Source of the DNA: Myxococcales bacterium
GTDB taxonomy: Bacteria; Myxococcota_A; Polyangia; Polyangiales; Houyiibacteriaceae
Direction of reading: 5' to 3'
Assembly: GCA_020351445.1 (NCBI GenBank)
Contig: CP070713.1
Coordinates: 3,217,654-3,261,836 of the forward strand
Length of the DNA stretch: 44,183 bases
Position 1 is the stretch's first letter; each line of letters begins with the position of its first letter. The translations under genes and the position numbers were made by a program. A model generated the notes under the pieces. The model saw only the letters and a program-made list of their open reading frames with translations. It was not told where the DNA came from and did not search any database. Below, one piece after another: positions 27,636 through 42,701 of this stretch.

Positions 27636-28352
27636 CTATCGTCGGCGACGGCTCTGGCGATTATTGTTCCGGGACCGGGACTGCGATCTATGCCTAGACT
27701 TGTCCCGGGCGGACTGCGCCTGGCGCCGCTCGAATTCTTGCTTGCTGATGAATTTCCCTTTTTTGTCGCGGTATTGCGTGGCGGATTGGGATCCGGAAAA
27801 AACCCCAGGGGCCTTTTTTCCGGATTGCTGCGCGGCTTGGACGCGGGCCCGGTGCGCGGCTCGATCGCGCTCGCTCTGAGCTCGGCGCCGATCATACTCC
27901 GCTGCGCTGATTGGATTGCCGCGGCGGTCCCGGTAGTTGTGCTCGTCATGGACGTTTGACTCGCGCTGCCACGTGCCCGAGGGATTCTTCTGCTCGAAGT
28001 GGCGCTTGCTCAGCATGTAACTCAGCGCGGCGCCCCCCGCGGCTCCTGCCCCAGCCGCAGCGAGAAATTTCCAGGTGTCGTTTGCCTCTTTGCTCTCGGG
28101 GTCCTTCCATTGCCATTGCCCGTCCGGGCCCCAGCTGCCGGCGGCCGGGTTGCCCACGTGATTGACGTACTGGCCAGGGGCCACGGGGCCCAGCGGTGGG
28201 GCGCCTGGGGGAACCTGGGCGGGGGCTGCTGGGGCGGCCATGGGCGCGGTGATCGTCGGCGACGGTTGCGGGGGGTCATTGCAAGCGATGGCCTGGATGG
28301 CCTGTAAAATGAACGGTGCGACCGTTAGATTGACAAAAGGATGGTTTTTCAT
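27636..28352 (-). CDS. Lipoprotein with a Pro-rich linker, a glycine-zipper segment and a tandem-repeat basic C-terminus
   Basis: Start at MKNHPF (AAGGAG 8 nt upstream). Lipobox AIAC. Gly-zipper FLAAAGAGAAGGAALSYML. Two 30-aa repeats: NYRDRRGNPISAAEYDRRRAQSERDRAAHR and QYRDKKGKFISKQEFERRQAQSARDKSRHR. The 22 upstream codons of the tracked ORF overlap the tRNA-like element. Confidence 0.6.
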   Translation of the reverse strand: MKNHPFVNLTVAPFILQAIQAIACNDPPQPSPTITAPMAAPAAPAQVPPGAPPLGPVAPGQYVNHVGNPAAGSWGPDGQWQWKDPESKEANDTWKFLAAAGAGAAGGAALSYMLSKRHFEQKNPSGTWQRESNVHDEHNYRDRRGNPISAAEYDRRRAQSERDRAAHRARVQAAQQSGKKAPGVFSGSQSATQYRDKKGKFISKQEFERRQAQSARDKSRHRSQSRSRNNNRQSRRRR

Positions 28353-28374
28353 TGGCTTAGCTCCTTTCAGATAA

Positions 28375-28443
28375 TGGCGGGGAGCATGGGAATTGAACCC
28401 ACAACGCCACCGCTGCATGGGCGTTACCCCGTGCGGACTCCCC
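28375..28443 (-). other. tRNA-like element: intact T-arm, acceptor 3' strand and CCA, but no canonical D or anticodon arms
   Basis: Minus strand: GGGGAGTCCGCACGGGGTAACGCCCATGCAGCGGTGGCGTTGTGGGTTCAATTCCCATGCTCCCCGCCA. T-arm GTGGG-TTCAATT-CCCAT. A 7-bp acceptor pairing is possible (GGGGAGT/GCTCCCC). It is only 69 nt including CCA. The + strand translation shows the GIEPTT artefact typical of antisense tRNA. Confidence 0.5.
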
Positions 28444-28525
28444 GCGTCAAAGAATGGCCGCGTCGCAGTCTACCGGTTCGAGCTCTGTCAGTCTTCTGCA
28501 AATTGGCGGGGGGGTCAGTTTGCAA

Positions 28526-28558
28526 GATGGAACCCGGATGGAACCCGGATGGAACCCG
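28526..28558. repeat. Perfect 3 x 11-bp tandem direct repeat, GATGGAACCCG
   Basis: 28526-28536, 28537-28547 and 28548-28558 are identical. Flanked by the TGCAAA/TTTGCA inverted repeat (28497-28502 / 28519-28524) and the CCGGGG/CCCCGG hairpin. Confidence 0.9.
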
Positions 28559-28691
28559 GGGGGCTCAATCCCCGGAGCCCCTTGCAACCTGTGTGCCAAA
28601 GTGTGCGGAAGTGGGGGCGGACTGCGCGGACCGCGCTTCCCCTCGTTTTTGTTGAGTTTTGCTCTGAGCGCTGCTCGAGCTCCCGGGCCCG

Positions 28692-28727
28692 TGACTCGTT
28701 TTTCTCGCTCAGGCGTTAAACCAGGTG
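28692..28727 (+). promoter_or_regulatory. Conserved promoter-like motif, copy 1
   Basis: TGACTC-N16-CGTTAA-ACCAGGTG. It sits at the head of the ORF-poor structured region. Confidence 0.5.
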
Positions 28728-29000
28728 AGGACATTCAGTCCGTCCTGACTCAGACAGATCGCGGTGAGTCGTTCGGCGACAAGTGCCGGTTGCATCGGTG
28801 AGTCGAGTGCGGCGAGGTTCGAGCCCAGTGATGGGTGTCCTCCATCCAATAGATACGCGCCAGGACAGTCGGCGAGTGACCCGCACGAGTTGCGACACAG
28901 CTAAAGGACTTGAATCGCGGTGGATGAACATACCCCGCCCTTGCCCCGGTAGAGCTGCTGGCTCAGTGAGGGGCGGGGGTGTGTAGAGAAACTGAAACGC

Positions 29001-29040
29001 TTAAATGCTTTTTAGCATTCTTTTTTTATAAAAAAAGAAG
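29001..29040. other. AT-rich tract (candidate DNA unwinding element or host-type promoter region)
   Basis: TTAAATGCTTTTTAGCATTCTTTTTTTATAAAAAAAGAAG is the only strongly AT-rich stretch I saw in this GC-rich window. It includes T7-AT-A7 and a TATAAA hexamer (29027-29032). Confidence 0.5.
29004..29027 (+). terminator. Weak AT-rich hairpin plus T7 run
   Basis: AATGCT-TTTT-AGCATT (29004-29019) followed by C and T7 (29021-29027). Confidence 0.3.
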
Positions 29041-29075
29041 GGGTCTCCACTATTACCAAATTACTAGGAGTTGCT

Positions 29076-29110
29076 GCTTTAGGGGACTCGCTTCGCTCGT
29101 CCCCTAAAGC
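29076..29110 (+). promoter_or_regulatory. Perfect 12-bp stem-loop
   Basis: GCTTTAGGGGAC (29076-29087) / GTCCCCTAAAGC (29099-29110) with an 11-nt loop, TCGCTTCGCTC. Extendable by 2-3 flanking pairs. Confidence 0.6.
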
Positions 29111-29113
29111 AGT

Positions 29114-29149
29114 AGGCCGCGCTTCGCGCGGCCTGTGTCTTTTGTTTTT
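29114..29149 (+). terminator. Rho-independent terminator
   Basis: AGGCCGCGC-TTC-GCGCGGCCT (9-bp GC stem) followed by GTGTCTTTTGTTTTT. Confidence 0.7.
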
Positions 29150-29198
29150 CGACTGGGAAGGAATAAATGGGGAGGGGTCCCAGGCGGATAAAGGGGAA

Positions 29199-29384
29199 AT
29201 GAAAATGGGAAGCAAAGAGAGGTTTCTGCGGATCAGTACGCGGGCCCTGGTGTTGGCTGGTGCCTGCATAATTGCAGGCCATCCGATGGATGAGGGCCCG
29301 CATGTGTCGCTGCTGCTGTCCTGGCTGTTTCTGGGGCTGGGCTGGGGCTTTGTGCGGCTTCTGTGGCCCGTTGCCCGGGATTGA
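29199..29384 (+). CDS. Small two-pass membrane protein
   Basis: ATG at 29199 or 29205, after AAGGGG. RALVLAGACIIAG and SLLLSWLFLGLGWGFVRLLW are hydrophobic. Third positions are mostly G/C. Confidence 0.4.
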   Translation: MKMGSKERFLRISTRALVLAGACIIAGHPMDEGPHVSLLLSWLFLGLGWGFVRLLWPVARD

Positions 29385-29414
29385 GCTCGGGCCGGGTGCG
29401 TGGTTGACTTCCGC

Positions 29415-29630
29415 ATGCTCGTGAGTGCATCGACGTTGGCTGTCCCCCCGCCATCCGCGGGGGAGCTCTTGCCTGCCTGGGTGGCTGCGCACCGGCAATG
29501 CGGCACCGGCTACCGGTGGCAGGCGGACTGTGCCCGGGGTTGTCTCGTCTACCGCTGCCCGCGGTGTGGCGAGACCCTGGATGTGCCCTTTGAGGGTCGC
29601 GGCCCAGGCGGCCCCCCGAGGGGCGGATAG
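29415..29630 (+). CDS. Small Cys-rich zinc-ribbon-like protein
   Basis: About 71 aa with QCGTGYRWQADCARGCLVYRCPRCGE. High third-position GC. Ends 10 nt before the helicase start. Confidence 0.45.
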   Translation: MLVSASTLAVPPPSAGELLPAWVAAHRQCGTGYRWQADCARGCLVYRCPRCGETLDVPFEGRGPGGPPRGG

Positions 29631-29642
29631 GCTAGAGGATTG

Positions 29643-31151
29643 ATGGGAAATACCTCGAGGTTGGTACTGCAGGCGCACAATTCCTGGACGTATGTGCTTG
29701 AGGCAGACGAGCTCATGCTGTCGGTGCTCAGCCAGGAGTGTCGATATCCGACTGAGCACGCCGAAATGATGGCCGATGGAACCTACCGGCCGCCGGCTGG
29801 CGAGCGTCCCTATGGCGGTTGGGACGGGTGGATCCGGTTGCTCAAACGGCCGCGGAGCGGGCCCCCCGCGTTGCCTACGGGGCTGCTGCCCCTGGCATGT
29901 CGCCTGGCTGCCAAGTACCAGCGGCACTCGGTGGTTGAGGACTGCCGGCAGCGGCCGGACGAGGAAATGCCCGAGTTCCCCGCGGTGAGCCTGCGTGACT
30001 ACCAGGAGCAGGCTGTCCGGGCGGCCATCCACGCGGGGCGGGGGGTCCTCGATCTGCCCCCCAGGGCCGGCAAGACTCGAATTGCTGCGGAGCTCCAACG
30101 GCGGCTAGGTTTCCCCACCGTGTGGCTGGCGCCAACCGAGCGGATTGTGGCGCAGACGGCGGACGTGCTGACCGAGCATTTTGGGCGGAACTATGCGCGC
30201 GCGCTCGAGTGCGCGGCAGACGCGGACATGATGCGGGACCGGCGGATCGTCGTCATGACTGCGGCGATGGCCGCGCGGCTGCCGGCGGACTGGTATCTGT
30301 CGCGGCAGATGATCCTGGTGGACGAGTTCCACCACGCCGCGGCCAAGACTTACAGCCGCGACGTGTGGCCGAAGATCGATCACATCTTCTGGCGCTTTGG
30401 GATGACGGGCACGTTTTTCCGCTCGGGCCATGATGCCCTGGCCATGCATGCGCTGCTCAGCCAGACGGTCTACCGGATGACGCCTGGGCAGCTGCTCGAG
30501 CAGGGCCACCTGGTGCCGACGCACTGCGTCTTTCTGCCCGTTGACGCGCCGCGGCTGCGGGGGGTGGGCAAGGGCTGGCACCAGGGGATGGGCACGGCCG
30601 GTATCCATGAGCACGAAATGCGGGCCAGGATGGCCGCAGACGCCGCTCTGAGCCTCTGCCGGCTCGGACGCAGGGTGCTAGCCCTGGTGGGCACCAAACG
30701 CCAGGGATACGCCCTGCAGGGGCTCCTAGAGGGGGGATTGCCCCGTCCTCCCCCAGGCGCTGAATTCCGAAGTGCGGAGTTCCTGAGCACCGATCGAGCT
30801 CGGCCAGTGCGCCAGCGTGTGATCGATAGCTTCCTGGCCGGCGGGGAGGTACGGGTGTTGATCGGGACTTCCCTGCTCGGGGAGGGGGTGGATCTTCCTA
30901 GCGCGGATGCGCTTGTGTACGCGCGCGGGGAACGTGCTGAGGTGAGCTTGATCCAGAATGCCTATCGCGTCGGGACGGCGCAGCCCGGGAAGCGGGCGGC
31001 GATCCTGGTGGACTTCGCCGACAGGCATCACAAGAACCTGCTCGGGCACAGCACAGAGCGGCTCCGCCTGTACTACCGTGAGCCTACGTTCAGTGTCACG
31101 GTGCTCGAGCATCCCAGCCAGCTCGAGCCGTGGGTTGCGCAGATCCCTTGA
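29643..31151 (+). CDS. SF2 DExH helicase, UvsW-like
   Basis: Walker A PPRAGKT, DEFH box (ILVDEFHHAA), MTGTFFRSG, LIGTSLLGEGVDLP and QNAYRVGT. The N-terminal domain has GGWDGWIRLL...PTGLL, like the UvsW N-domain. ATG at 29643 after GAGGA. Confidence 0.8.
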   Translation: MGNTSRLVLQAHNSWTYVLEADELMLSVLSQECRYPTEHAEMMADGTYRPPAGERPYGGWDGWIRLLKRPRSGPPALPTGLLPLACRLAAKYQRHSVVEDCRQRPDEEMPEFPAVSLRDYQEQAVRAAIHAGRGVLDLPPRAGKTRIAAELQRRLGFPTVWLAPTERIVAQTADVLTEHFGRNYARALECAADADMMRDRRIVVMTAAMAARLPADWYLSRQMILVDEFHHAAAKTYSRDVWPKIDHIFWRFGMTGTFFRSGHDALAMHALLSQTVYRMTPGQLLEQGHLVPTHCVFLPVDAPRLRGVGKGWHQGMGTAGIHEHEMRARMAADAALSLCRLGRRVLALVGTKRQGYALQGLLEGGLPRPPPGAEFRSAEFLSTDRARPVRQRVIDSFLAGGEVRVLIGTSLLGEGVDLPSADALVYARGERAEVSLIQNAYRVGTAQPGKRAAILVDFADRHHKNLLGHSTERLRLYYREPTFSVTVLEHPSQLEPWVAQIP

Positions 31152-31162
31152 CGCGGACTCGC

Positions 31163-31198
31163 TGACCCGTTTTTCTGCGCCGAGCGTTAACCCAGGTG
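31163..31198 (+). promoter_or_regulatory. Conserved promoter-like motif, copy 2
   Basis: TGACCC-N16-CGTTAA-CCCAGGTG, 12 nt after the helicase stop and 83 nt before ATG 31282. A 9-bp hairpin (GCCCGACCG/CGGTCGGGC) lies in the putative leader. Confidence 0.5.
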
Positions 31199-31281
31199 AC
31201 AGGGCGACAGCCCACAACGGATAGCCCGACCGTCGCCTTAGCCCCGCGGCGGTCGGGCACATTTGCGAAGGAGCTCATAGG

Positions 31282-31680
31282 ATGACGTTGGAGATCCGAG
31301 AAGTGGCGGGCATGGATGACGCGGAGCGTCTGCAGGCACAGGAGCGCGTGGCGATCAAGTCGAGGGAGCAGCTGCTCGCGTTTCTGCATGAGAGTGAACG
31401 GGATTGGCTGATCTTCAACACGCGGCACCTGATCGAGGCGATCCCCTTTCCGCAAGGGGTCCTCATGATGCAGCAGATCGTTGCATGGTATCGCAATCAC
31501 CGGGCCCAGGTGGGCACAGGCCGCAAGGTGCCCGGGAAGCACCCGATCACGGGTGAGCCGATCCACGTCGAGGACATGCACGGCGAAGCCCTTGAAATTT
31601 CGGAGGCTGAGCAGGCGATCCGATTCCTTCTGGACATGATCCGGACCCGTGATCCAAGCTGGACGCTGGCTCGGTTGTAG
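31282..31680 (+). CDS. Hypothetical protein
   Basis: 132-aa ORF with RBS GAAGGAG. I recognised no motif. Confidence 0.55.
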   Translation: MTLEIREVAGMDDAERLQAQERVAIKSREQLLAFLHESERDWLIFNTRHLIEAIPFPQGVLMMQQIVAWYRNHRAQVGTGRKVPGKHPITGEPIHVEDMHGEALEISEAEQAIRFLLDMIRTRDPSWTLARL

Positions 31681-31763
31681 GCGCAAACCAACGGGGGACG
31701 GTGTGCGATCGATAGACATTGCAGCGCCGTTCTATTCCCCCTTTTCCACGCGAGGGATCTTTG

Positions 31764-32405
31764 ATGGAAACCACCATGGAGGCCGTACTATGCTCGGATT
31801 TCAACCATTGGCGGAATCAGACGTGGCATACACAGCAATTGCGCAAGCAAAAGCCGATCCGAAATGTGTCTTTGAAAAAGGGCCAGCCCATTTTTTCAGC
31901 GCTCAATCGCTGGTGCGCCGAAAGGAAAATAGACCCCCGCCGGTGGCTTTATTTTCGGTTTGCGTCTCGTCATTGGAAATACGCCCCGCCCCTAGATCAG
32001 CTAGTCCCTGCCCCGCGCAGCGAGAAAAAAGCGTTGATTGCTTATCGGCTGCTGGGTGAGACTCCAGCATTTTCCGATCGAATTTACAGCGAAATACAGT
32101 ACCAGCGAGACGAAACCGGGGTTTCCTGGGATGTGAATAGGGATATTTCCCACCTGGCCGAAGCAATCAAAAGACGATACCTCGCAACGAATGACTGGCA
32201 GCGCTGCATGAGCCGCATGCAGGATCAAACCTACGGTTTCCATCCGAAAAGTCGAGTGTGTGGGCGTTGCCCCGCGGCGAGCTCTTGCGCTGAGCAGCTG
32301 CAACGAGGGGTGCCTTTCGATATCGTGGCGCTACGCCGGGGGGATGTGTCTCTGCGTTCATGCTACGTGGCCGCAGAGAGGGGGACACATGGAGCAAGGC
32401 GTTGA
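31764..32405 (+). CDS. Hypothetical protein (Trp/Arg-rich, C-terminal Cys pair)
   Basis: I prefer the ATG at 31764 (GAGGGA upstream) over the TTG at 31719. No family recognised. Overlaps the DnaB-like start by 17 nt. Confidence 0.5.
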   Translation: METTMEAVLCSDFNHWRNQTWHTQQLRKQKPIRNVSLKKGQPIFSALNRWCAERKIDPRRWLYFRFASRHWKYAPPLDQLVPAPRSEKKALIAYRLLGETPAFSDRIYSEIQYQRDETGVSWDVNRDISHLAEAIKRRYLATNDWQRCMSRMQDQTYGFHPKSRVCGRCPAASSCAEQLQRGVPFDIVALRRGDVSLRSCYVAAERGTHGARR

Positions 32406-33837
32406 TGTTCACGGCGAGCAGCGATTGCCTTTTGACATTGAATTCCAAGCCGCGCTGATCCGCTTGCTATGCGAGGATGCGGGCTTTGGTGCCGTAGTAG
32501 GGAAGCATCTGAAGGGGGAATATTTCGAGGACGAGGGGTTGGCCTGGGCCTGGCGCACGGCCCAGGCGCATGAACAGCGATATGGGGATCTGCCGTCTGT
32601 CCCTACGTTGCGCCAGTATGCCATGATGAGTGATCCGCGACTGCGACAGCTGCACTACGCAACGGCCGTGCGTATCGAGCGGACGCCCGTGCGGGATGAG
32701 CAATTCATGCGGGATAGTGCGGTGGACTTCTGCAAGCGTAATATTTTCACCGCGACGGTGCGGCAATGCGCGCAGCAGTACAATTCCGGGCGAGTCGAGG
32801 ATGCATACGAGCAGCTGGCGCGCGCGACAGACGAGCTCGAGAAAGCGACTTGGCGGACGCCCGATGCGACGTATTTTTTCGATGATCTCGCGCGCCGCAA
32901 TACGTTGCGGCTCTGCGGGGAATCGAGCGGCTATGCGGTGGCGACGGCAATTCATGAGCTCGATCGGTTGCTCGGCGGGGGGCTGAAAAAGGGCGAGCTC
33001 GGGACGTGGATTTCCTATCCCAAGGTGGGGAAGTCCACAATGCTGCTCACAATGGGCGTGGCTGCGACCCGCAGTCAAATGCGGCCTACCGCTCATTTCA
33101 TTTTTGAGGGGGCGAGAAAGCAGGCGGAGGACCGTTACGAGGCAGCGTTTACGCAGGAAGCCTATCAGGAAGTGCGGACGCGTGGCCTAGAATCGTCGGC
33201 GTTTCGTGACGCGTGGGAGCAGTATCAGTATTTGCGTGGGCTGCTTTGGCTGCAGGCAATGGTTGAGGAATGGGACTACACCGCGATAGAGATCACTGAG
33301 AGCTTGCGTGCCCAGAAGCGTGCGAAAAATTGGACCCCCGATCTGGTGATCGTCGATTATGGCGATCTGCTTTCCGGACGGCACAAGCCCTACCGAAGCG
33401 AGCAGCAGAAGCAAAAGGACGCTTTCCGGGATCTTAAAATGCTGGCTTCGCGGGGATATGCTCTGTGGACGGCCAGCCAGGTGCAGCGGCCGAAAGAGGG
33501 GGCTGAGGATGACGCACATTGGATTTTCGCGCGCCAGATCGCGGACTGTTACGAGAAGGTGAGGGTCTGCGATTTTATCGGCTCGCTGAATCAAACCAAC
33601 GCGGAGCGGAAGCACAAAGTCATGAGGATATTTGCGGAGCTCTATCGGGACAACGAAGCGAATTTGCGCTTTCTCGTATCTTGCGATTTTTCTGTGATGC
33701 GCATTGCGTCCGGCAAAGACCTATGGTCGCCGAGTATGGCTGATCTGCAATCGGGGACTGGGCTGGGTATGCAGGACAAGGGACGGACGCCCAAGACGGC
33801 GGACCGGCCGCAGCAATTGACCGCTCCGCTGACATGA
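32389..33837 (+). CDS. dnaB: DnaB-family replicative helicase
   Basis: Starts at MEQGVDV. PFDIEFQAALIRLLCED is an N-domain-like pattern. Walker A YPKVGKST, Walker B LVIVDYGDLL, and ASQVQR (the SQLNR-like motif). Confidence 0.8.
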   Translation: MEQGVDVHGEQRLPFDIEFQAALIRLLCEDAGFGAVVGKHLKGEYFEDEGLAWAWRTAQAHEQRYGDLPSVPTLRQYAMMSDPRLRQLHYATAVRIERTPVRDEQFMRDSAVDFCKRNIFTATVRQCAQQYNSGRVEDAYEQLARATDELEKATWRTPDATYFFDDLARRNTLRLCGESSGYAVATAIHELDRLLGGGLKKGELGTWISYPKVGKSTMLLTMGVAATRSQMRPTAHFIFEGARKQAEDRYEAAFTQEAYQEVRTRGLESSAFRDAWEQYQYLRGLLWLQAMVEEWDYTAIEITESLRAQKRAKNWTPDLVIVDYGDLLSGRHKPYRSEQQKQKDAFRDLKMLASRGYALWTASQVQRPKEGAEDDAHWIFARQIADCYEKVRVCDFIGSLNQTNAERKHKVMRIFAELYRDNEANLRFLVSCDFSVMRIASGKDLWSPSMADLQSGTGLGMQDKGRTPKTADRPQQLTAPLT

Positions 33838-34838
33838 GCGACCTACGCGCGGCCATAGACGCTTTCGATCTTGAGTCGTATGTGCTCGAGCACGGAGCGG
33901 ACGAGCGCCAGCGTGGGGAATGGACTCTCACGTGCCCGATCTGCGCCGGGGAAAAACTGCTCGTCAACATGCGCAAAAAAACCTGGCATTGCTGGGTGTG
34001 TCAGCGCTTTGAGCTCCGCTGGACGGGCAACGCATACAAGCGTGTTGCCACGCGCGGCGCCGGGGGGCTGCTGCAGCTGGTGCAGCTGCTCGAAGGCTGC
34101 TCGCGCAATGAGGCAGAGCTCCGCGTGCTACGGGGCCGCGTGCGGCGCCCTGGCAGTCTGCAGCGCGTGGACGTGGCAGAGCTCGAGGGGCCACCGGCTC
34201 CGCCGATGCAAGCGCCGGCCATTGCTCCGCCCCCAGGCGTGATCGCCTTTGAGCGGGTGCTGCCCTATCTGCAGAGCCGCGGGATCACGTGGGAGGACGT
34301 GCAGGCCTTCGCGCTCAGCTGGTGCCCTTGGGGGCGGTACAAGGATCGCTGTGTCTTTCCGTGCTTCGAGTCTGGCCGGCTGGTGTATTGGCAGGCGCGC
34401 GCCATGTGGGAAGGCTCAGGGCGCGATTTTGTGAAGGCGCTGAATCCTCCCCGTGTCCTCGGAGGCGTGACGAGCGCCGAAGTCCTTTTTAACCTAGATC
34501 AGGCGGTCCGCGTGGGCCACGGGCACGTCTGTATCTGCGAAGGCCCCATTGATGCCATCCATGCGGGTTATGACGCTGTGTGCACATTCGGTAAGCAGAT
34601 CAGCGGAGCACAGATCGGCAAAATGCTCCAGAGGGGAGTTGATCGCGTGGATGTCATGTGGGATGCAGATGCGAGCAGGGATGCAGCAGTGGCCGCGCAA
34701 CGCTTGTCCGCGCTCTTTCGCGTGCGTCTAGTTGTGCTGCCGTCTGGCGACCCTGGGGACTGGCCACGCGATCAATTGTGGCGGATGCGACAGAGCGCGC
34801 CATGGGTATGGCGCGAATCGCGTCTTTCGCGACTGTAG
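33834..34838 (+). CDS. DNA primase (zinc ribbon plus TOPRIM, T7 gp4 N-terminal type)
   Basis: CPICAGEKLLVNMRKKTWHCWVCQ zinc ribbon. TOPRIM motifs CEGPIDA and WDADASRD. ATGA-coupled to the helicase gene. Confidence 0.8.
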   Translation: MSDLRAAIDAFDLESYVLEHGADERQRGEWTLTCPICAGEKLLVNMRKKTWHCWVCQRFELRWTGNAYKRVATRGAGGLLQLVQLLEGCSRNEAELRVLRGRVRRPGSLQRVDVAELEGPPAPPMQAPAIAPPPGVIAFERVLPYLQSRGITWEDVQAFALSWCPWGRYKDRCVFPCFESGRLVYWQARAMWEGSGRDFVKALNPPRVLGGVTSAEVLFNLDQAVRVGHGHVCICEGPIDAIHAGYDAVCTFGKQISGAQIGKMLQRGVDRVDVMWDADASRDAAVAAQRLSALFRVRLVVLPSGDPGDWPRDQLWRMRQSAPWVWRESRLSRL

Positions 34839-34847
34839 GGGGAGCGG

Positions 34848-35075
34848 TTGCGACGGAAAATATCCATATTTTTGCCGGCAGACACTCTGACACTGATCGA
34901 TGAGGTGGCCCGTACTAGGCTCGGCGTGGGGCGCAGTGCGTTCCTGGCCGTGGGCGGGATGTGTCTGGCTGCGCGGTTCTTGGCGATCACACCGCGTCCC
35001 AAGCGCAAGCAAAGTCTCGCTGCGTTGGAGGCGCTGCTTTCAGAGCTACGCGATAGGGTCGAAAAAGCGCAATAA
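34848..35075 (+). CDS. Ribbon-helix-helix (CopG/Arc-like) DNA-binding protein
   Basis: 75 aa, TTG start. KISIFLPADTLTLIDEVARTRLGVGRSAFLA fits the strand-helix-helix pattern. Confidence 0.6.
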   Translation: MRRKISIFLPADTLTLIDEVARTRLGVGRSAFLAVGGMCLAARFLAITPRPKRKQSLAALEALLSELRDRVEKAQ

Positions 35076-35247
35076 ATTAGCGGAGATACATATGGGGTCC
35101 GGGTTTGCCTAGTTTTCAGGGAAATCTGTTGCGTTTTGCTCCAATCTTGCGCTAACGTCCGAAAATCCGTTGTTGTTTAGGGCTGTTACTTGGCCGTGGC
35201 CAGAAGGGCCGCGGTGTGCGCCGGGGTTTGCCCGGCTTGGGGCTTCT

Positions 35248-35766
35248 ATGGGGACCGATCCTATCGAGGGATACCTGCCTGCTATCGAGACTGTGGCGCG
35301 CTCTGCTGCGCCGGTGGCCAACCGGTTGGACCGGTTGGCCTATGACCGCGAGGACTACCGCCAGGAGCTCGTCTGCGTGGCGCTTCAGGCGCAAGGCTCC
35401 TTTCGTCGTCGCGTGGGCTTCTGCGGGCCGCATGAGCGCCGCTATGTGCTGCGGAGTCTCTGGAATCACTTGCGCTCGCGCTTTCGCTCGCGTGTGCGCG
35501 TGCTCGGGGAGGGGAAGGCCCGTGCGGTCGTGGGTGACTGGGACGTGATGGATCACGTAGTGGACACCGCCGGTCAGCATGAGGCCCGGGAGTTCCTAGC
35601 TGCTGTTGGGGAGGCCTGCGACGGCGCAGAGCTCGAGCTCATTGCCCGCTTGGCCCAGGCGGGGGGTCACGTGCCCAGGGCCCATGACCCTGATCAGGAC
35701 GGCTCGATCTCTGCTTTTCGTCGCCGTGTCCGCGCGGTCAGGGAACGTGTCAGATCCTTGCGGTAG
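35248..35766 (+). CDS. Divergent sigma-70/ECF-like factor
   Basis: LAYDREDYRQELVCVALQAQGSF...RRYVLRSLWNHLRSRFRS resembles region 2 (D.ED..QE......, ...N...D..R). The C-terminal ELELIARLAQ...SISAFRRRVRAVRERVRSL resembles the region 4 helix. Start chosen at MGTDPIE. Confidence 0.45.
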   Translation: MGTDPIEGYLPAIETVARSAAPVANRLDRLAYDREDYRQELVCVALQAQGSFRRRVGFCGPHERRYVLRSLWNHLRSRFRSRVRVLGEGKARAVVGDWDVMDHVVDTAGQHEAREFLAAVGEACDGAELELIARLAQAGGHVPRAHDPDQDGSISAFRRRVRAVRERVRSLR

Positions 35767-35771
35767 GTTGC

Positions 35772-35806
35772 TGACTCGTTTTCTGCGCTCGAGCGTTAGA
35801 CCGGGA
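35772..35806 (+). promoter_or_regulatory. Conserved promoter-like motif, copy 3
   Basis: TGACTC-N16-CGTTAG-ACCGGGA, 6 nt after the sigma-like stop and 38 nt before ATG 35845. Confidence 0.45.
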
Positions 35807-35844
35807 AAGGGCGGAGGTGGTAGGGGGGGACAATCGGAGGTGAA

Positions 35845-36789
35845 ATGGAAGCGTTACCCTATCAGATCACGGGGGGGCGGTGGCTTGTCACTGGGCCCCT
35901 ACCGAACGACTGCCAGCTGATCGAGCGCAATGGGCAGCAAATTTTCACAGACGCCGCGGGGAATCCACAGCCGGATTGTTTTGGGGTTTTCTGGGAAGCC
36001 GTTGGGCCTGAGACGGACACCGAGAATTGCCGTGATTGCGATCTCGAGCCTATCTGTCGCATGGCCACGGTGCATTACCGGATGCCAGCAGCCCTAAAGG
36101 GACTTGGCGGGCCGCTCGGGGAGCATACCGCCGCTGCGTTGGCGCCCCAGCTTGAGCTCAATTGTGAGGCTGTGCGTGCCCTGGTGGCGGATTGGCGGGC
36201 ATTGAATGAGCCCGCACAGGGTGTGCAGCCGAAGCGGCCGAAGCGAGCTCCGCCGGCCGCTGGGGGGGAAAAGGCGGGACCCCCGGAGCCGGGCGGAGGG
36301 CCCCCCGAAAACCCTATGTGCGCCCCGTCTGCTCAGATTGTGGCGGGCGGGGCTACGCAGCCGGCGACAAAAATACTCTATGCCCGACTTGCCAAGGTTT
36401 GGGATGTCCACCGGCGGATCTGGATCCGCCCGTGGGAGGCTCGCAGCCAATGGCAGAAGGAACGCCAGGCCAACGAATGGATCCGCCGGTTGCTGCCGGG
36501 AATGATTCTGCGGCGGTCGTTTGCGGGCCAGTGGTGGACGGTGCAGGTGCACAGCCATGCGTATCAATTCCAGGGCCGGCGGTATCCGACGCTGACCGCA
36601 GTAACGGGGGAGGTGTTTTCGCAAGTCCCTGTCCGCCGCCGTACCCAACAGCAAAGGACCATTCATTGCCCGAGTCACGTGGCCAGGTTTTGGTGCCTGC
36701 CAAAGCTTCTAGAGGTGGATCGGAGGAAGGTTGCTGGGGTTGCAGAAACGATGCTCGCGCGCTTGCACAACAGGTTTTGGCGCGAATGA
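35845..36789 (+). CDS. Protein with a Cys-rich N-terminus and a DUF2924-like C-terminal domain
   Basis: LLPGMILRRSFAGQWWTVQVHSHAYQFQGRRYPTLTAVTGEVF matches the DUF2924 pattern (L.pGt.L.R.w.G..h.V.v....f.y.G..Y.SLSa.A..ITG), from memory. Confidence 0.45.
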   Translation: MEALPYQITGGRWLVTGPLPNDCQLIERNGQQIFTDAAGNPQPDCFGVFWEAVGPETDTENCRDCDLEPICRMATVHYRMPAALKGLGGPLGEHTAAALAPQLELNCEAVRALVADWRALNEPAQGVQPKRPKRAPPAAGGEKAGPPEPGGGPPENPMCAPSAQIVAGGATQPATKILYARLAKVWDVHRRIWIRPWEARSQWQKERQANEWIRRLLPGMILRRSFAGQWWTVQVHSHAYQFQGRRYPTLTAVTGEVFSQVPVRRRTQQQRTIHCPSHVARFWCLPKLLEVDRRKVAGVAETMLARLHNRFWRE

Positions 36790-36971
36790 TCCGCACGTGT
36801 GGCTTGACGGAGCCGCGCTGCGATTTTCTGCCGTCTGAATCTGCGACGGCGAGCCGTGGGAGCCTCAAGCGGATCGGCCCGGTATCCTCGTTGCGCATGC
36901 TGCGGTTGATGCATTCTGGGTTGTCCTTTTCCGACGCCTTGGACGTGGTGGTCAATTGTCACTACAGCTGA
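36786..36971 (+). CDS. Small hypothetical protein
   Basis: 61 codons, ATGA-coupled to the preceding stop and overlapping the polymerase start. This is only the 3' part of tracked ORF 36318..36971. Confidence 0.35.
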   Translation: MIRTCGLTEPRCDFLPSESATASRGSLKRIGPVSSLRMLRLMHSGLSFSDALDVVVNCHYS

Positions 36972-38926
36972 GAGCATTTTACGAGCAGTGCGACGATCCG
37001 CAGCGTCGCATTGTCGAGGACGGCGCTACGTTTGAGCGCTTGCTTGCATGGTTGCGGACGCGCCAGGCCGTGGTGGTCGACTATGAAACTAGCGGCCTGG
37101 CCTGGTATCACAAGGCTAGGATTTGCGGCGTGGGCTTGGGTGCGTGGGCGGATAGCGGGGAATTTTTCGCTGCGTATGTCCCTATCCGCCATCGCACCGC
37201 CCAGCCGCAATTGCCTGAAAAGCACGTCCTCGCTGGTGTAGGGGAGATCCTGGCCGATCCGTCGATCACCAAAATAGGGCATAATCTGAAATTCGAGGAC
37301 CATATGAGCCGCGTTGATGGAATGCGGATCTGCGGTCCCCGCGTCGACACGATGGTTGCGGCCCACCTATACAATGAAAACCGCCCCGTCCAATTGGAGC
37401 AGCGCGCGCGGGATGACTTGGGCGTCCAGGACGCCTACGCAACATCCAAGTTGGTGACAGAGCGCATTGCTCGCCTGGCGCGCGAAAATGGGCTTTCCCG
37501 GGAGCGGTATCGTGCGCGCTATGGGTATTCTGAGCTCGATACGCATTTTTGTGGGCGCTACTGCTGCGGTGATCTGATTCACACGGCGGGCTTGGCAAGT
37601 CTGTATCTGAATTGGGGTGTGCGGGAGCATTTCCCGCGTCTGTGGGACACGGAAATGCGGTTGACGGAGGTTCTGTGCGACACGGAGTGCGCGGGGCTGA
37701 AAGTTGACACGGAATATCTGAGCAAGCTTCGAGACACGGTGCAGGCGACGAAAGCGGCCCTAGGTCAGCATTTGTGGCAGGCCACCGGGGGCTATGAGCT
37801 CAATCCAGGCAGCGATCACGACGTGCGGAAATTCCTGGCGGACGTGATGCGCCTTCCGTTGTCCAAGGTGACGGATAAGGGGGAATGGAGCGTTGACGCT
37901 GAAGTCCTATCGGAATTCGCTGAGGGCAATCACGTCTGCCGGTTGTTGCTGCAGTGGCGCGAAGCGGATAAGCTGGCGACGACCTACACCGATTCGATTC
38001 TGAAGCGGCTAGACGACGCTGATTTTTTGTATGCTGACTTGCAGCAAATGGGTGCGGCGACCGGCCGGCTCAGCTGCAAGGATCCAAATTTCCATAATTT
38101 CCCTACTGACAGCAACGATCGGGCCGTTGCTCACAGCGGCAAGAAATTGAAGGAGGGTGGCGTTGATCCATGGTCAATACGTCGCGCTTTTCTTGTGCGC
38201 GAGCCTGGCTGGACGCGAATTTTTCTGGACTACAGCCAGATCGAGCTCCGCGTGCTGGCCCATTATTCACGCGATCCAATCATGGTGGATGCTTTTTTGC
38301 AGGGCGCCGATGTGCATGAGCGCACTGCGAGCGAAGTGGCAAAAATTCTCGGCTATGAGCCTGAGCGCCGCATAGCAAAAATCGTCAATTTCGGCTTGTC
38401 CTACGGGATGAGTGAAATCGGATTGCAGCGGCAAGCGAAAATTCCTTTTGTCGAGGCTGAAGCTTTCTTGCGCGCCTTTTTCCAGAAATACGTGGGCGTG
38501 CAGCGCTACCGATATTCGGTGGTCCAGGAAGCGCTCAGCAACGGTTGTCAGTGGCGCAATGTTTTCGGCCGCTGCCGGCGGATCCCGGCTCTCAATTCGC
38601 AGCATGCGAACGAGCGCAACGCGGCCATGCGGCAGATGATCGCTTCTGCCATCCAAGGGACTGCTGCCGAGCTCACGAAGGAAAGCATGGTGCGGATCTC
38701 GGACTGGCTGCGGGCGGAAAACTCGCCAGCGATGCTCTGCAATACGGTCCATGATGAAATCCAGATCGATGCGCCGGACGAATGCGTGCCGGCGGTGATC
38801 GAGCAGTGCAAGAAATTGATGGAGGACTATCCGGAATTTGCCCCGATACCGATCTTGGTGGACGCTGAGACTTCCACTAAATCGTGGGCAGACAAAACAG
38901 CATATTCGCCAGGGGGGGAATCATGA
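36956..38926 (+). CDS. polA: Family A DNA polymerase with a 3'-5' exonuclease domain
   Basis: Exo motifs VVVDYETSGL, HNLKFEDHM and YCCGDL. Pol motifs DYSQIELRVLAH (A), RRIAKIVNFGLSYGM (B) and VHDEI (C). The TTG start is uncertain. No 5' nuclease domain. Confidence 0.95.
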   Translation: MSLQLRAFYEQCDDPQRRIVEDGATFERLLAWLRTRQAVVVDYETSGLAWYHKARICGVGLGAWADSGEFFAAYVPIRHRTAQPQLPEKHVLAGVGEILADPSITKIGHNLKFEDHMSRVDGMRICGPRVDTMVAAHLYNENRPVQLEQRARDDLGVQDAYATSKLVTERIARLARENGLSRERYRARYGYSELDTHFCGRYCCGDLIHTAGLASLYLNWGVREHFPRLWDTEMRLTEVLCDTECAGLKVDTEYLSKLRDTVQATKAALGQHLWQATGGYELNPGSDHDVRKFLADVMRLPLSKVTDKGEWSVDAEVLSEFAEGNHVCRLLLQWREADKLATTYTDSILKRLDDADFLYADLQQMGAATGRLSCKDPNFHNFPTDSNDRAVAHSGKKLKEGGVDPWSIRRAFLVREPGWTRIFLDYSQIELRVLAHYSRDPIMVDAFLQGADVHERTASEVAKILGYEPERRIAKIVNFGLSYGMSEIGLQRQAKIPFVEAEAFLRAFFQKYVGVQRYRYSVVQEALSNGCQWRNVFGRCRRIPALNSQHANERNAAMRQMIASAIQGTAAELTKESMVRISDWLRAENSPAMLCNTVHDEIQIDAPDECVPAVIEQCKKLMEDYPEFAPIPILVDAETSTKSWADKTAYSPGGES

Positions 38927-39435
38927 GCGAATTGGACATGGACGCCTATGTGTCGCGCCTGCAAAACATGCCCAGCTGGAATATCCACAGTCTGGACAAT
39001 GAAGGGTCGACCACGTTTCCGTGGTTTCAGGTGCCGCACGATATCTGGCGTGCGCTGGTGATCAACGAATTGAACGCGCAAGCGGAGGCCATGACGATCG
39101 GCGCGGAGATCCAGAAGTGGGGGCGGCTGACTGCGCTTGCGCGCCGCATATGGCAAGTCGAGGAACGCGGATATCGGTCGTGGCGGTCGGCGTTCCTGTT
39201 GGATGCGATGAATCCGGACGGCAAGCCGGACGGGTGGAAAAAGCCGACAAAGGATCAGGTTGAATCAGCCTATCGGGTGGACCCTGACTACAAGCTCTGG
39301 CAGGTGCGGATCGAGCGGGCGGAGGAAGCATACCACGCGACGGAGTGCATGGTTGACGCGCTGCGCGCAAAGAAGGATGCGCTGATCCGTTTTGCTCCGA
39401 CCTGGCGGGATGCGGGAGCCGCCACGGCCGTCTGA
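38923..39435 (+). CDS. Hypothetical protein
   Basis: ATGA-coupled to the polymerase stop, about 170 aa, Trp-rich. No motif recognised. Confidence 0.5.
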   Translation: MSELDMDAYVSRLQNMPSWNIHSLDNEGSTTFPWFQVPHDIWRALVINELNAQAEAMTIGAEIQKWGRLTALARRIWQVEERGYRSWRSAFLLDAMNPDGKPDGWKKPTKDQVESAYRVDPDYKLWQVRIERAEEAYHATECMVDALRAKKDALIRFAPTWRDAGAATAV

Positions 39436-39468
39436 CTCGTTTTTCGGTCCCGAGCGTTAAACCAGGTG
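39433..39468 (+). promoter_or_regulatory. Conserved promoter-like motif, copy 4
   Basis: TGACTC-N16-CGTTAA-ACCAGGTG. The TGA of the motif is the stop codon of the preceding gene. It lies 22 nt before ATG 39491. Confidence 0.5.
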
Positions 39469-39490
39469 GACAGACAAAGGAGCTCGAGCG

Positions 39491-40849
39491 ATGACAAGCT
39501 ATCAATATCCGCCAGCCGGTCAAATGCCGGCCCAGGCGCCCCAGCAGCCCTATCCGCAGTATGCGCAGCAGCAGCCCCAGGGAGCTCCGCCGAGCAATGG
39601 CGGGATGCCTGGCTGGCATGAGGCCAACGACGAGCAGGCGCGGCAAGCGTATGCCACGGCAGCGGCAAGCGTGGGGAATTTCGGACCGAATCCCCAATTT
39701 CTGAAGATCCCAGGGCCGCGTGGTCAGCTGGTTTGGGACAACAGCGTGCCCCAGGGCTACAGCGCGAATTGCGTGATCCGAGTCATGCCCCCGTGGGCCC
39801 AGGGCAAGACAGTTTTCGTTGAGAGCAAGACGATCTTCTACAAGTCCCACAAGTACCCCCGTGGGCGGGTGCTCGGCTACCAGGGGGAGGATAGCCTTTT
39901 CATGCAGGCTATCCAGCGGGCCGCGGACAGCGGCGACGAACGGTTGCAGCGGGTCGCCGCCGACTATGGCCGCGTGCGGACGCAGTATCTCTACAACGTG
40001 ATCGATCTGTCGCATCCGGACAGCCACACGGGGCAGGACGGCGTGATGCGCCCCTATCTGCTCGGCGCTGGCCGCCAGCTGCACCGGGATATCGGCGACT
40101 TGGTTGAGGCCCGCGGCGGGATCAATCGGATCGTGTCCCCGGTGGCAGGCCGTCCGGTTCGCTACACGAAAACCAAGACGGGCCCGGAGCCGATGAATGT
40201 GGAATATGGGGTGATCGATCTTGAACCCCAGGAGCTCCATTCCTATTTCCATCCCATTTTGCAAAACCTGTGGGATCTCGAGGCCCAGATCCCGGTGCCG
40301 ACGCAGGATGACGTGCTCGAAGCGATCCGGGAGCTCGGGCTGCCGGATCCACGGCAGACAATGGCCCAGGTTCCGGGGCAGATGGCAGGGGCGCCCCCGC
40401 AGTCCTACGGCATGAGCTATCAGCCCGATCCCAATCCGCCGCACGGCAGTCCCTACCAGGCCCAGGCGGCTCCGCCCCAGACATGGGCCCAACAGCCCCC
40501 AGGCCCCCCGCAGCAGCCCGCGGGAGCGCCACCGGCTCCTGTGCCCTTCGCCGAGTCACAGATGCAGCAGCAGCCCGCACAGGGGGGCTGGGGGGCACCA
40601 GTCAATCCCGCAGCAATGGGTCAGCCCGCGGCTCCGCCGCCAGCCCAGGGAGCTCCGCCGCAGCAGTGGGCAGGGGCCGCGGCTCCGCCGCCACCGGCAA
40701 TGCCGCCAGCGCAGCAGCAAGCGCAGCAGTGGGGAGGGACTGCGGCTCCGCCGCCAATGCCGACGCAGCAGCCGCCGCCAGTGACCTCGGGGCAGGCTCT
40801 ACCGGGTGGGTATCAGCCGGCACCGGGGGGGCCACCTAACCCTTTGTGA
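39491..40849 (+). CDS. gp32-like ssDNA-binding protein with Pro/Gln-rich N- and C-terminal low-complexity tails
   Basis: The core FLKIPGPRG...NCVIRVMPPW...TQYLYNVIDL...RPVRYTKTKTG parallels T4 gp32 (LKLDNAG..AVIRFLP ... SYWANILVV ... FVLKVKQVSG). The tails are rich in P, Q and A. Confidence 0.55.
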   Translation: MTSYQYPPAGQMPAQAPQQPYPQYAQQQPQGAPPSNGGMPGWHEANDEQARQAYATAAASVGNFGPNPQFLKIPGPRGQLVWDNSVPQGYSANCVIRVMPPWAQGKTVFVESKTIFYKSHKYPRGRVLGYQGEDSLFMQAIQRAADSGDERLQRVAADYGRVRTQYLYNVIDLSHPDSHTGQDGVMRPYLLGAGRQLHRDIGDLVEARGGINRIVSPVAGRPVRYTKTKTGPEPMNVEYGVIDLEPQELHSYFHPILQNLWDLEAQIPVPTQDDVLEAIRELGLPDPRQTMAQVPGQMAGAPPQSYGMSYQPDPNPPHGSPYQAQAAPPQTWAQQPPGPPQQPAGAPPAPVPFAESQMQQQPAQGGWGAPVNPAAMGQPAAPPPAQGAPPQQWAGAAAPPPPAMPPAQQQAQQWGGTAAPPPMPTQQPPPVTSGQALPGGYQPAPGGPPNPL

Positions 40850-41040
40850 GTGCTCGGCGGGATGGCCGCCATTTGTGCTTTGGGCGATGGCATGAGGCTG
40901 ACCTGATGTGTCGGGGATGCCCGTCTGATCTGCTGGTGAAATGCACGCGGGTTGCCGGTTGCTCGCGTGCTTCCGCTCCATCTGCGGAGCAAGCGGCGGA
41001 GCTCGCGCGGCTCGAGCGCGCTTTACGGGGGGAAATCTGA
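40846..41040 (+). CDS. Small Cys-rich protein
   Basis: 64 aa. GTGA overlap with the SSB stop and TGATG overlap with the recA-like start. HLCFGRWHEADLMCRGCPSDLLVKC. Confidence 0.4.
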   Translation: MSARRDGRHLCFGRWHEADLMCRGCPSDLLVKCTRVAGCSRASAPSAEQAAELARLERALRGEI

Positions 41041-42212: not shown

Positions 42213-42429
42213 CTGCGACAATTGTACGCGCGTTGTTGACGTGATCGTGTCCTATGCTGATCGGGATGGGAGGCATTTGTGCTCTGTCTGCAAGGGGGAC
42301 TTGATTCGCCGCGGTGTGTCCGGTTTCCGGTTGGGGAAACCCCGGTATCAGATGGCCGCGGTTTTGCCAAATGGGGACCACATACCGGGCCATTTCGGAA
42401 AGGACGCTAGCCGTAGGCGGAAAAAGTGA
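42193..42429 (+). CDS. FmdB-type CxxC...CxxC zinc-ribbon protein
   Basis: GTG start. VPVYTYDCDNCTRVVDV...HLCSVCKGDLIRR matches the MP.YEY.C..CG..FE....C P.CG pattern. Confidence 0.55.
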   Translation: MPVYTYDCDNCTRVVDVIVSYADRDGRHLCSVCKGDLIRRGVSGFRLGKPRYQMAAVLPNGDHIPGHFGKDASRRRKK

Positions 42430-42701
42430 TGCGCGGGCAATGGCGGGCGTTGCACACGCAATATCGGACGGCGCGTGGAAACCTGGTGCGCTATGACCCG
42501 AGGACACATTGTGTGCAGATCACGTTGCCGCAGTATCATGCGGACGCTTCATATGAAATTCCCCTGGCCCGGATTACTACGGCGAGCGACTTCTGCGACT
42601 GGGCGGATCATCTGTTGGAAAAGGCCTGGATTGACGCTGAATTGATGGGTGCGATCATCATTTCGATTGATGACGCAATCGGTTTGCGGGGGCTTCAATG
42701 A
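42426..42701 (+). CDS. Hypothetical protein
   Basis: About 90 aa (GTG 42426 or ATG 42429). Coupled on both sides. Confidence 0.5.
   Translation: MMRGQWRALHTQYRTARGNLVRYDPRTHCVQITLPQYHADASYEIPLARITTASDFCDWADHLLEKAWIDAELMGAIIISIDDAIGLRGLQ

Follow-up and report, generated by a model that had tools for sequence, protein, structure and literature searches.

A candidate phage-encoded ECF-type sigma factor and four predicted promoters in the replication module of a contractile-tailed phage

A short two-box motif recurs four times between the genes of a phage replication and recombination module, which raises the question of what these sites do and which protein reads them. The stretch of DNA concerned (44,183 bases; hereafter the window) belongs to a contractile-tailed phage, with matches to tail sheath, baseplate J and tube-initiator domains, and encodes a small protein of 172 amino acids (aa) within the same module. 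A preliminary description, made from the letters of the sequence, had taken the four copies for promoters with a geometry like those of extracytoplasmic function (ECF) sigma factors, read either by this sigma-like protein or by an alternative sigma factor of the host. On the basis of sequence comparisons, we consider it probable (roughly 0.78) that the four copies are promoters recognized by host core RNA polymerase together with the 172-aa phage protein acting as an ECF-type sigma factor.

Four copies of a directional motif

The copies and the genes that follow them are listed below.

28692–28727, + strand: motif copy 1 (P1), TGACTC-N16-CGTTAA-ACCAGGTG, in the divergent non-coding region between a minus-strand gene (27636–28418) and the helicase cluster
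31163–31198, + strand: motif copy 2 (P2), heading a cluster with a DnaB-like helicase gene, a primase gene and the putative sigma gene
35772–35807, + strand: motif copy 3 (P3), heading a DUF2924 gene and a DNA polymerase A gene
39433–39468, + strand: motif copy 4 (P4), heading genes for an SSB-like protein, a RecA/UvsX-like protein and SbcD (and SbcC in relatives)

Inspection and pattern matching confirmed the coordinates and the plus-strand orientation that had been reported for the four copies, together with the distances of copies 2–4 to their neighbouring genes. Copy 2 starts 11 nt past the helicase stop codon (31151) and ends 83 nt before an ATG at 31282; copy 3 starts 5 nt past the stop codon of the putative sigma gene (35766) and ends 38 nt before an ATG at 35845; and the TGA of copy 4 is itself the stop codon of the open reading frame (ORF) 38884–39435, with the end of the motif 22 nt before an ATG at 39491. 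The consensus is TGACyC-N16-CGTTAr followed by aCCAGG, present in exactly four copies in the 44,183 bases, all on the plus strand. Exact matches to TGACYCGTTTT-N11-CGTTAR number four against 0.12 expected from shuffles (0 of 100 shuffles reach four), and no further match with up to three mismatches is found on either strand of the window. A position weight matrix scan of the 44,183 bases returned no site of intermediate score; the matrix was trained on these same sites, so their own high scores follow by construction. A blind repeat finder returned a 37-nt family (D3) made up of these four sites. The structural region (1–26,000) has no copy, in agreement with the reported absence of the motif from the 26-kb late operon. 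The relative L032, in which the counterpart of the first gene of the window is 79% identical, likewise has no copy in the 10 kb that precede this gene.

Conservation at syntenic junctions

The motif recurs in metagenomic relatives of the phage. One relative from IMG/VR (L001), in which the DNA polymerase is 67% and the sigma-like protein 48% identical to those of the window, has four copies spaced nearly as in the window. Further contigs were fetched via proteins homologous to the helicase or to the 172-aa protein; in L013, L014, L017, L028, L039 and L042, with sigma identities from 96% down to 42%, the motif stands on the coding strand at the corresponding junctions. The four junctions lie ahead of the helicase cluster, behind the helicase gene, behind the 172-aa gene and behind the gene next after the polymerase gene, which encodes a protein of about 170 aa. 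Counting lineages with altered boxes (described below), sites syntenic with copy 1 are found in L013 (3053), L001 (362), L042 (3835), L041 (9752) and L040 (9694), and with copy 2 in L017, L014, L013, L001, L042, L044, L041 and L040; all relatives that cover the copy 3 junction have a syntenic copy there, and copy 4 is syntenic in relatives as well. The motif always stands a short way ahead of genes and in their orientation. Wider scans with the motif found one true relative and eight single chance matches in IMG/VR, and near-identical copies of L001 plus chance matches in JGI metagenomes.

Identity was compared block by block, both between lineages and between the junctions of one genome.

First block, TGACyCGTTTTt: 85–88% identity
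Second block, gCGTTAr: 87–90% identity
Third block, aCCAGg: 72–80% identity
Spacer of 9 nt: 39–42% identity
Flanks: 26–47% identity

Judged from this pattern, purifying selection acts on the motif at all four syntenic junctions across the diverged relatives. Across 17 distinct sites from the window and the relatives, it carries about 46 bits, with T1, G2, C6, T8–T11, C23, T25–A27, C30, C31 and G33 as invariant columns. The putative −10 box contains CGTTA in 16 of the 17 sites, all 17 have TTTT at positions 8–11 (one base past the first hexamer), and the putative −35 box varies among TGACyC, TGTCCC and TGwCAC, with AAC in none. The exact 16-nt spacer that had been noted for the window holds in all four of its copies, and the distance between TGACyC and CGTTAr is the same in every relative. 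The third block is less rigidly placed: in L028 its distance from the −10 box is shifted by one base, so a start-site or discriminator region fits this block better than a rigid protein site.

Sites of this kind might instead act at the RNA level or as recombination boundaries—as processing sites, as terminators or antiterminators, or as module junctions that promote exchange—and their position exactly at gene junctions, with an overlapping stop codon at copy 4, would suit such a role. We regard it as highly improbable. RNAalifold found 0 conserved pairs and no covariation in the 17-site alignment, which agrees with the initial view of the motif as a sequence signal and not a hairpin; no T-run or hairpin is present at the sites; copy 1 is not at a gene junction; and invariant boxes separated by a free spacer of fixed length point to a protein that reads double-stranded DNA. 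A hairpin or terminator as such was rejected on the same absence of conserved pairing and of hairpins at the sites. A sigma-70 reading was likewise rejected, because a combined sigma-70 and terminator scan calls none of the four sites and CGTTAA lacks the position-2 A and position-6 T of TATAAT.

A directional two-box signal just upstream of coding-strand genes, with a fixed N16 and conservation at four junctions, supports the interpretation of the copies as predicted promoters. The further proposal that they divide the region into at least four transcription units stands in part: the promoters are supported, and the division into four units goes too far, as the scan finds no terminator just upstream of copies 2–4. 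In the absence of preceding terminators, copies 2–4 would be internal, additive promoters in a co-directional cluster.

Could such promoters belong to an RNA polymerase of the phage itself, either single-subunit and T7-like or non-canonical, encoded in the other half of the genome? In its favour, the data cover about 44 kb plus 10 kb upstream in one relative, and relatives sit on contigs of 97–113 kb. Against it, no large ORF of the window has an RNA polymerase domain, a sigma homologue is present, and single-subunit polymerases use an uninterrupted promoter block of about 20 bp, whereas the motif has two boxes around a free spacer of 9–10 nt; we consider this alternative very unlikely. An alternative with slightly more in its favour, although still improbable, is that the sites bind a phage regulator (the 75-aa protein encoded at 34848–35075 or the DUF2924 protein) as activator or operator sites, or in connection with partition or replication. 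The CCAGG block and the near-invariant first block of 12 nt exceed typical sigma contacts, and small conserved genes of unknown function flank the putative sigma gene in all relatives. Against a regulator site, the motif is asymmetric and always oriented with the downstream genes; two boxes at a fixed 16 nt with an unconstrained spacer are the signature of sigma recognition and not of a dimeric operator; diverged lineages keep N16 while both boxes change; and the 75-aa protein has no match to a DNA-binding domain.

A divergent family of predicted sigma factors

The proposed reader of the promoters is encoded in the module itself.

35248–35766, + strand: gene for the 172-aa putative sigma factor, divergent and ECF-type (sigma-2 + sigma-4), assigned by family-profile homology and lying between the primase and DNA polymerase genes

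The family was assembled by an exhaustive profile search, which collected 97 cluster representatives (E ≤ 0.001), nearly all 160–190 aa long and corresponding to about 97 clusters at 50% identity. A first profile of six sequences had no match in a PDB sequence search. A profile of 84 members matched CnrH (4cxf, E = 6.6e-5), 5uxx (0.0058) and a SigH/SigE chimera (6jcy, 0.027) among PDB sequences, an alignment that is colinear with all three of these solved ECF structures from region 2 through region 4 and, in CnrH, spans both domains (residues 46–186). Every NCBIfam family matched by the 84 members is a sigma factor family: TIGR02937 (sigma70-ECF) by 13 of them (best 5.3e-5), TIGR02989 by four and SigZ by one (9.4e-7). 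Three of the 84 matched Pfam Sigma70_r2. A comparison by hhalign with Escherichia coli RpoE was colinear (E = 1e-3, probability 22%), a weaker line of evidence.

AlphaFold2 with the 84-sequence alignment predicted two helical bundles joined by a low-confidence flexible linker at residues 95–106 (predicted local distance difference test (pLDDT) score 90); the model from a shallow five-sequence alignment (pLDDT 42) was unusable. Whole-chain Foldseek matches to this structure were weak, with named matches mostly to sigma factors (phage 'Sigma70-ECF'; phage GAP52 sigma, E = 1.6), and the low scores presumably reflect the arbitrary relative orientation of the two domains. The length of 172 aa and the two-domain sigma-2/sigma-4 layout without region 3 fit the ECF (group 4) architecture, and we conclude from these family-level comparisons that the protein is likely a highly divergent ECF-type sigma factor. 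The earlier description of it as sigma-like was therefore sound at the level of the family profile, although the window protein by itself matches no curated model. No cultured representative of the family turned up, and the family alignment has no conserved stretch usable for an alignment-based locus search. A sigma homologue lies inside the replication module in every lineage that has the motif.

Boxes change with the sigma lineage

In lineages with more distant sigma homologues, the corresponding junctions carry other boxes at the same spacing.

L044/L045: TGGCCA-N16-CGTTA, four sites at the corresponding four junctions
L041: TTGCCAAAAA-N13-CGTT (that is, TGCCAA-N16-CGTTA), four sites against 0 expected; sigma homologue 27% identical to that of the window
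L040: GTTMCC-N16-CATCAATA (GTTCCC-N16-CATCA), four sites against 0.07 expected; sigma homologue 29% identical to that of the window

The −10 box of L040 is thus CATCA instead of a CGT-containing box, and L041 and L044 have an A-tract in place of the T-tract beside the −35 box. Support also came from a junction-anchored search that is blind to the motif, in which the three post-gene junctions of each lineage were compared over 36 ungapped columns: 16–24 of the 36 columns were identical in seven lineages, against at most 14 in shuffled controls. By this analysis, six lineages besides that of the window have the same arrangement (sigma gene in the module plus four sites) above background. L030 gave no motif match. 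Listing all pairs of gapped k-mers in 38 IMG/VR loci gave too much noise, and a strict match to both boxes proved overly stringent.

Junctions and N16 stay fixed while the boxes change with the phage sigma, as would be expected if a phage sigma factor and its promoters co-evolved; for a host sigma factor this pattern is awkward. Of the two readers named at the outset, we favour the phage protein. That a host ECF-type alternative sigma factor reads the sites, with the 172-aa protein serving as a decoy, an anti-sigma antagonist or another regulator, is unlikely in our assessment, because the box sequences of the phage lineages diverge together with the phage sigma, at fixed junctions and spacing, and because each motif-bearing lineage has a sigma homologue in the same module. 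Host ECF sigma factors are, moreover, usually held inactive by anti-sigma factors. Among 185,579 GTDB representative genomes, the strict pattern gave only six single low-scoring matches (two in metagenome-assembled genomes (MAGs) of Planctomycetales), which we judged to be chance. In favour of a host factor, the window protein alone is not recognizable as a sigma factor, the helicase cluster lists a 3.54-Mb contig, so that the element may sit in a bacterial chromosome, and the motif fits the generic ECF geometry of many bacterial sigma factors (PMC5758882, PMC3426412).

A predicted cascade

An element of another kind lies in front of the putative sigma gene, in a gap of 170 nt that holds the conserved sequence GTTGCGTTTTGCTCCAATCTTGCGCTAAC (35128–35156).

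35129–35158, + strand: sigma-70-like element TTGCGT-N18-TAACGT, conserved, 119 nt upstream of the ATG of the putative sigma gene; candidate host primary-sigma promoter

The form TTGCGT-N17/18-TAnnnT is kept 107–128 nt from the sigma ATG in seven lineages, including L041 and L040, and a similar element was aligned by eye in L029 (eight lineages in total, with the window). It is kept even where the four-copy motif has other boxes. No second match of this kind exists in the window, although the count alone is not significant. The conserved stretch at 35128–35158 is GTTGCGTTTTGCTCCAATCTTGCGCTAACGT; conservation extends to the TTTGCTCCA part of the spacer, an unusual feature in an ordinary promoter that may point to an operator.

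In the mechanism that we propose, host polymerase with its primary sigma factor would start the cascade by transcribing the sigma gene from the TTGCGT-N17/18-TAnnnT element, and the phage sigma would then activate the replication and recombination genes (P2, P3 and P4) and the non-coding region (P1). At each site, TGACyC would be the −35 box, contacted by sigma domain 4, and CGTTAr the −10 box, contacted by sigma domain 2; GTTTTt would be a T-tract beside the −35 box, with the 16-nt spacing setting the register. The aCCAGG block covers the predicted start, probably a purine (A or G) at motif position 32 or 33. Positive feedback would follow from the position of the sigma gene, which is downstream of P2 as well, and the structural (late) genes must be controlled otherwise, as they have no copy of the motif.

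Several observations weigh against this reading. Transcription initiation, the identity of the reading sigma factor, the start position and the cascade are all things that we infer here from sequence alone, and the scan covered about half of a genome of about 100 kb. The window's 172-aa protein has no match of its own in Pfam, PHROG or NCBIfam (E ≤ 0.01 for Pfam and NCBIfam), its sigma identity comes through transitive, family-level matches of modest E-value, and the best Foldseek E-values of its predicted structure are 1.5e-3 (BFVD) and 0.48 (PDB). The canonical AAC is missing from the −35 box, and the conserved CCAGG block does not belong to the standard elements of ECF promoters. Typical autoregulated ECF sigma genes have their promoter motif directly in front of them, whereas no copy stands in that position here. 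Finally, four lineages with a detectable sigma homologue (L052, L059, L060 and L064), which shares at most 35% identity with any sigma of the query set, have no junction motif in common above background.

Comparison with known promoters and phage sigma factors

Classical phage sigma cascades, which are mentioned in PMC9429907, use factors that redirect host core polymerase to later-class phage promoters, among them T4 gp55 and SPO1 gp28 and gp33/34; these serve unrelated promoter types and are not of the two-domain ECF type. No homology of the window sigma to these factors was detected. The mechanism class is already known: phage sigma factors that have promoters of their own date back to the work on T4 and SPO1, and those of ECF-like type to phiEco32 and 7-11. 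The closest analogue of the system predicted here is gp47 of phage 7-11.

Salmonella phage 7-11 encodes its sigma factor gp47 among the replication genes, and eight promoters follow the pattern GTAAtg-(16)-aCTA, while its early promoters are sigma-70-dependent (PMC8948821); its relative phiEco32 (gp36) has a different consensus at similar genome positions (PMC8948821, PMC12276001). The window resembles both in having the sigma gene in the replication (middle) cluster and a small set of near-identical promoters between phage genes, and it resembles 7-11 in having bipartite promoters with a 16-nt spacer, a candidate sigma-70-like promoter that would set the programme going, and related phages in which diverged sigma factors go with another consensus at similar positions. 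In contrast to 7-11 and phiEco32, the predicted promoters serve replication and recombination genes and not late structural genes, the consensus differs, and the phage is not a podovirus but a contractile-tailed phage of about 100 kb known only from metagenomes. A tblastn search with the window sigma for gp36/gp47 homology found no match at E ≤ 1 in INPHARED (50,697 phage records), and the PHROG sigma family phrog_1740 was matched by one of the 84 family members (at 0.009). By these comparisons, the 172-aa protein would work like the gp36/gp47 systems and is not a sequence member of their families.

Among bacterial promoters, those of the Bacillus subtilis ECF sigma factors (sigma-W, -V, -X and -M) share the ECF-class consensus tGAAACnTTTt...CGTA/CGTC with spacers of 14–17 bp; its −35 box includes AAC, its −10 box includes CGT, and a stimulatory T-tract, an accessory feature of several ECF groups, occupies −30 to −26 (PMC5758882). 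The phage motif has the identical register (hexamer, one base, T-tract, CGT), a 16-nt spacer inside this range and the same high adherence to a consensus, and so its ECF-promoter-like geometry, as first described, is borne out by published promoters. It differs from the B. subtilis promoters in having CyC for AAC, a −10 box extended to CGTTAr and the extra aCCAGG block, and the system differs in that the sigma factor is phage-encoded with no obvious anti-sigma partner. The missing AAC is within the known ECF range, since the experimentally verified ECF41 promoter TGTCACA-n16(±1)-CGTC/TGTT lacks it as well (PMC3426412); AAC is thus a usual feature and not an obligatory one. Likeness to ECF41 extends to −35 boxes of the TGTCAC type (L001 copy 1 reads TGTCAC-N16-CGTT, and L042 and L028 have TGTCCC), to the spacer of 16 ± 1 and to a −10 box of CGTC, TGTT or CGTT. 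Unlike the phage protein, a minimal 172 aa with four targets, ECF41 sigma factors have a C-terminal regulatory extension and one neighbouring target gene, and profile searches detected no specific relationship between the two.

The non-coding region behind copy 1

Copy 1 directly faces not a gene but about 430 nt of conserved non-coding DNA.

28728–29146, + strand: non-coding region after copy 1, with a GC hairpin (28933–28979), a stretch of 17% GC (29000–29039) and tandem terminator-like hairpins (about 29075–29136) followed by a T-run

This region contains no convincing ORF, and an independent gene caller leaves it empty in the near-identical contig L039. Its fold is more stable than that of shuffled sequences (z = −5.2 for 28728–29146), a terminator-like site is called at 29112–29136, and searches for tRNA, tmRNA and Rfam families downstream of copy 1 gave no match. 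Six lineages share the same architecture: hairpin, AT-rich or repeat stretch, tandem hairpins, GCGACTGGGAAGG, small ORF and helicase gene. The AT-rich stretch has 5–20% GC or is made of short repeats, depending on the lineage, the tandem hairpins have CTTCG loops, and the GC hairpin CCCCGCCC...GGGGCGGGG becomes CCCCACCC...GGGGTGGGG in L041, a compensatory change. The corresponding regions in relatives are as follows.

L013: 3090–3620
L001: 400–960
L042: 3870–4330
L041: 9790–10000
L040: 9730–10000

Upstream of copy 1, at a distance of about 130 nt, lies a perfect tandem repeat of 3 × ATGGAACCCGG (28527–28559), and other direct repeats stand upstream of P1 in relatives (2 × about 26 nt in L013 and 2 × about 40 nt in L001); these may be iteron-like protein-binding repeats. 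The region after copy 1 could be a phage non-coding RNA. Origins in T4 and T7 combine a promoter with an unwinding element. By analogy, and tentatively, copy 1 might be the trigger of a phage replication origin, with sigma-dependent transcription opening or priming it, an idea that we hold to be doubtful.

Phage context

The sheath is distantly similar to those of myoviruses of about 90–95 kb from Pseudomonas, Bordetella and Aeromonas. The metagenome relatives sit on contigs of 97–113 kb, and the window is therefore roughly half a genome. No cultured phage is close: megablast of 28,000–40,000 against INPHARED gave no match. The product of the window's first ORF (8–1072) has more than 1,100 homologous clusters. 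The protein cluster of the window helicase includes a contig of 3,543,082 bp, and because of this record the window may lie in a bacterial chromosome or MAG (as a prophage, or through a binning or assembly join) and not on a separate contig of the phage; the 44-kb window showed no integrase.

From about 29.6 kb onward the genes form a co-directional replication and recombination module, identified by Pfam and PHROG matches, whose gene order is kept in relatives.

29643–44183, + strand: block of replication and recombination genes, downstream of the four predicted promoters
29643–31151, + strand: SF2 helicase (502 aa)
32260–33837, + strand: DnaB-like helicase
33834–34838, + strand: primase
35845–36789, + strand: DUF2924 protein
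36956–38926, + strand: PolA (DNA polymerase A)
39491–40849, + strand: SSB-like protein
40941–42212, + strand: RecA/UvsX-like protein
42698–43693, + strand: SbcD

Several further features of these genes were observed. The helicase orthologue is 635–840 aa long in several relatives, with Hint/intein domains (PF07591, PF05203 and PF14890; L013 4064–5971, L001 1667–4174 and proteins P0225, P0258, P0305 and P0332), and the 502-aa window helicase has no such domain; the intein thus comes and goes within the clade. The 75-aa ORF (34848–35075) is conserved directly upstream of the sigma-gene gap in all relatives, and a by-eye likeness of its product to ribbon-helix-helix regulators was dropped because it had neither Pfam support nor a match to a DNA-binding domain. 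Between the helicase and DnaB-like genes of L040 (12177–12413) is a small protein with a weak match to an Hfq domain (PF17209), which has no counterpart at that position in the window. The 5′ leader after copy 2 (31199–31281) opens with ACAGGGCGACAGCCCACAACGGA, conserved in L013, L014 and L017, and then, immediately ahead of the first gene's ribosome-binding site, forms a strong hairpin, CCCGACCGTCGCC...GGCGGTCGGG (about 31226–31258), which may be a leader or attenuator structure. In the structural region, three diverged copies (65–72% identity) of a 79-nt coding repeat (21535–22738) lie inside a 1056-aa ORF (20601–23771) that probably encodes a tail fibre, and a 107-nt repeat is common to 16456–16562 and 18411–18517.

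Implications

The arrangement described here would form a compact and internally consistent regulon, in which a single sigma gene, preceded by a candidate host-type promoter, serves four target promoters. It overturns nothing, and would be a new case of a known phage strategy, not a new principle. The sigma family is essentially invisible to Pfam and PHROGs and its genes are annotated as hypothetical; recognizing them would improve the annotation of phage transcription. If the idea of an origin at copy 1 is true, one small sigma factor would couple the timing of gene expression and of DNA replication. In the clade as a whole, nature would provide at least four different sigma/promoter specificities with the promoters at unchanged places in the genome. 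The series may serve as a model for the rewiring of ECF specificity across a whole regulon and, given the swapping of its boxes, might supply synthetic biology with orthogonal sigma/promoter pairs.

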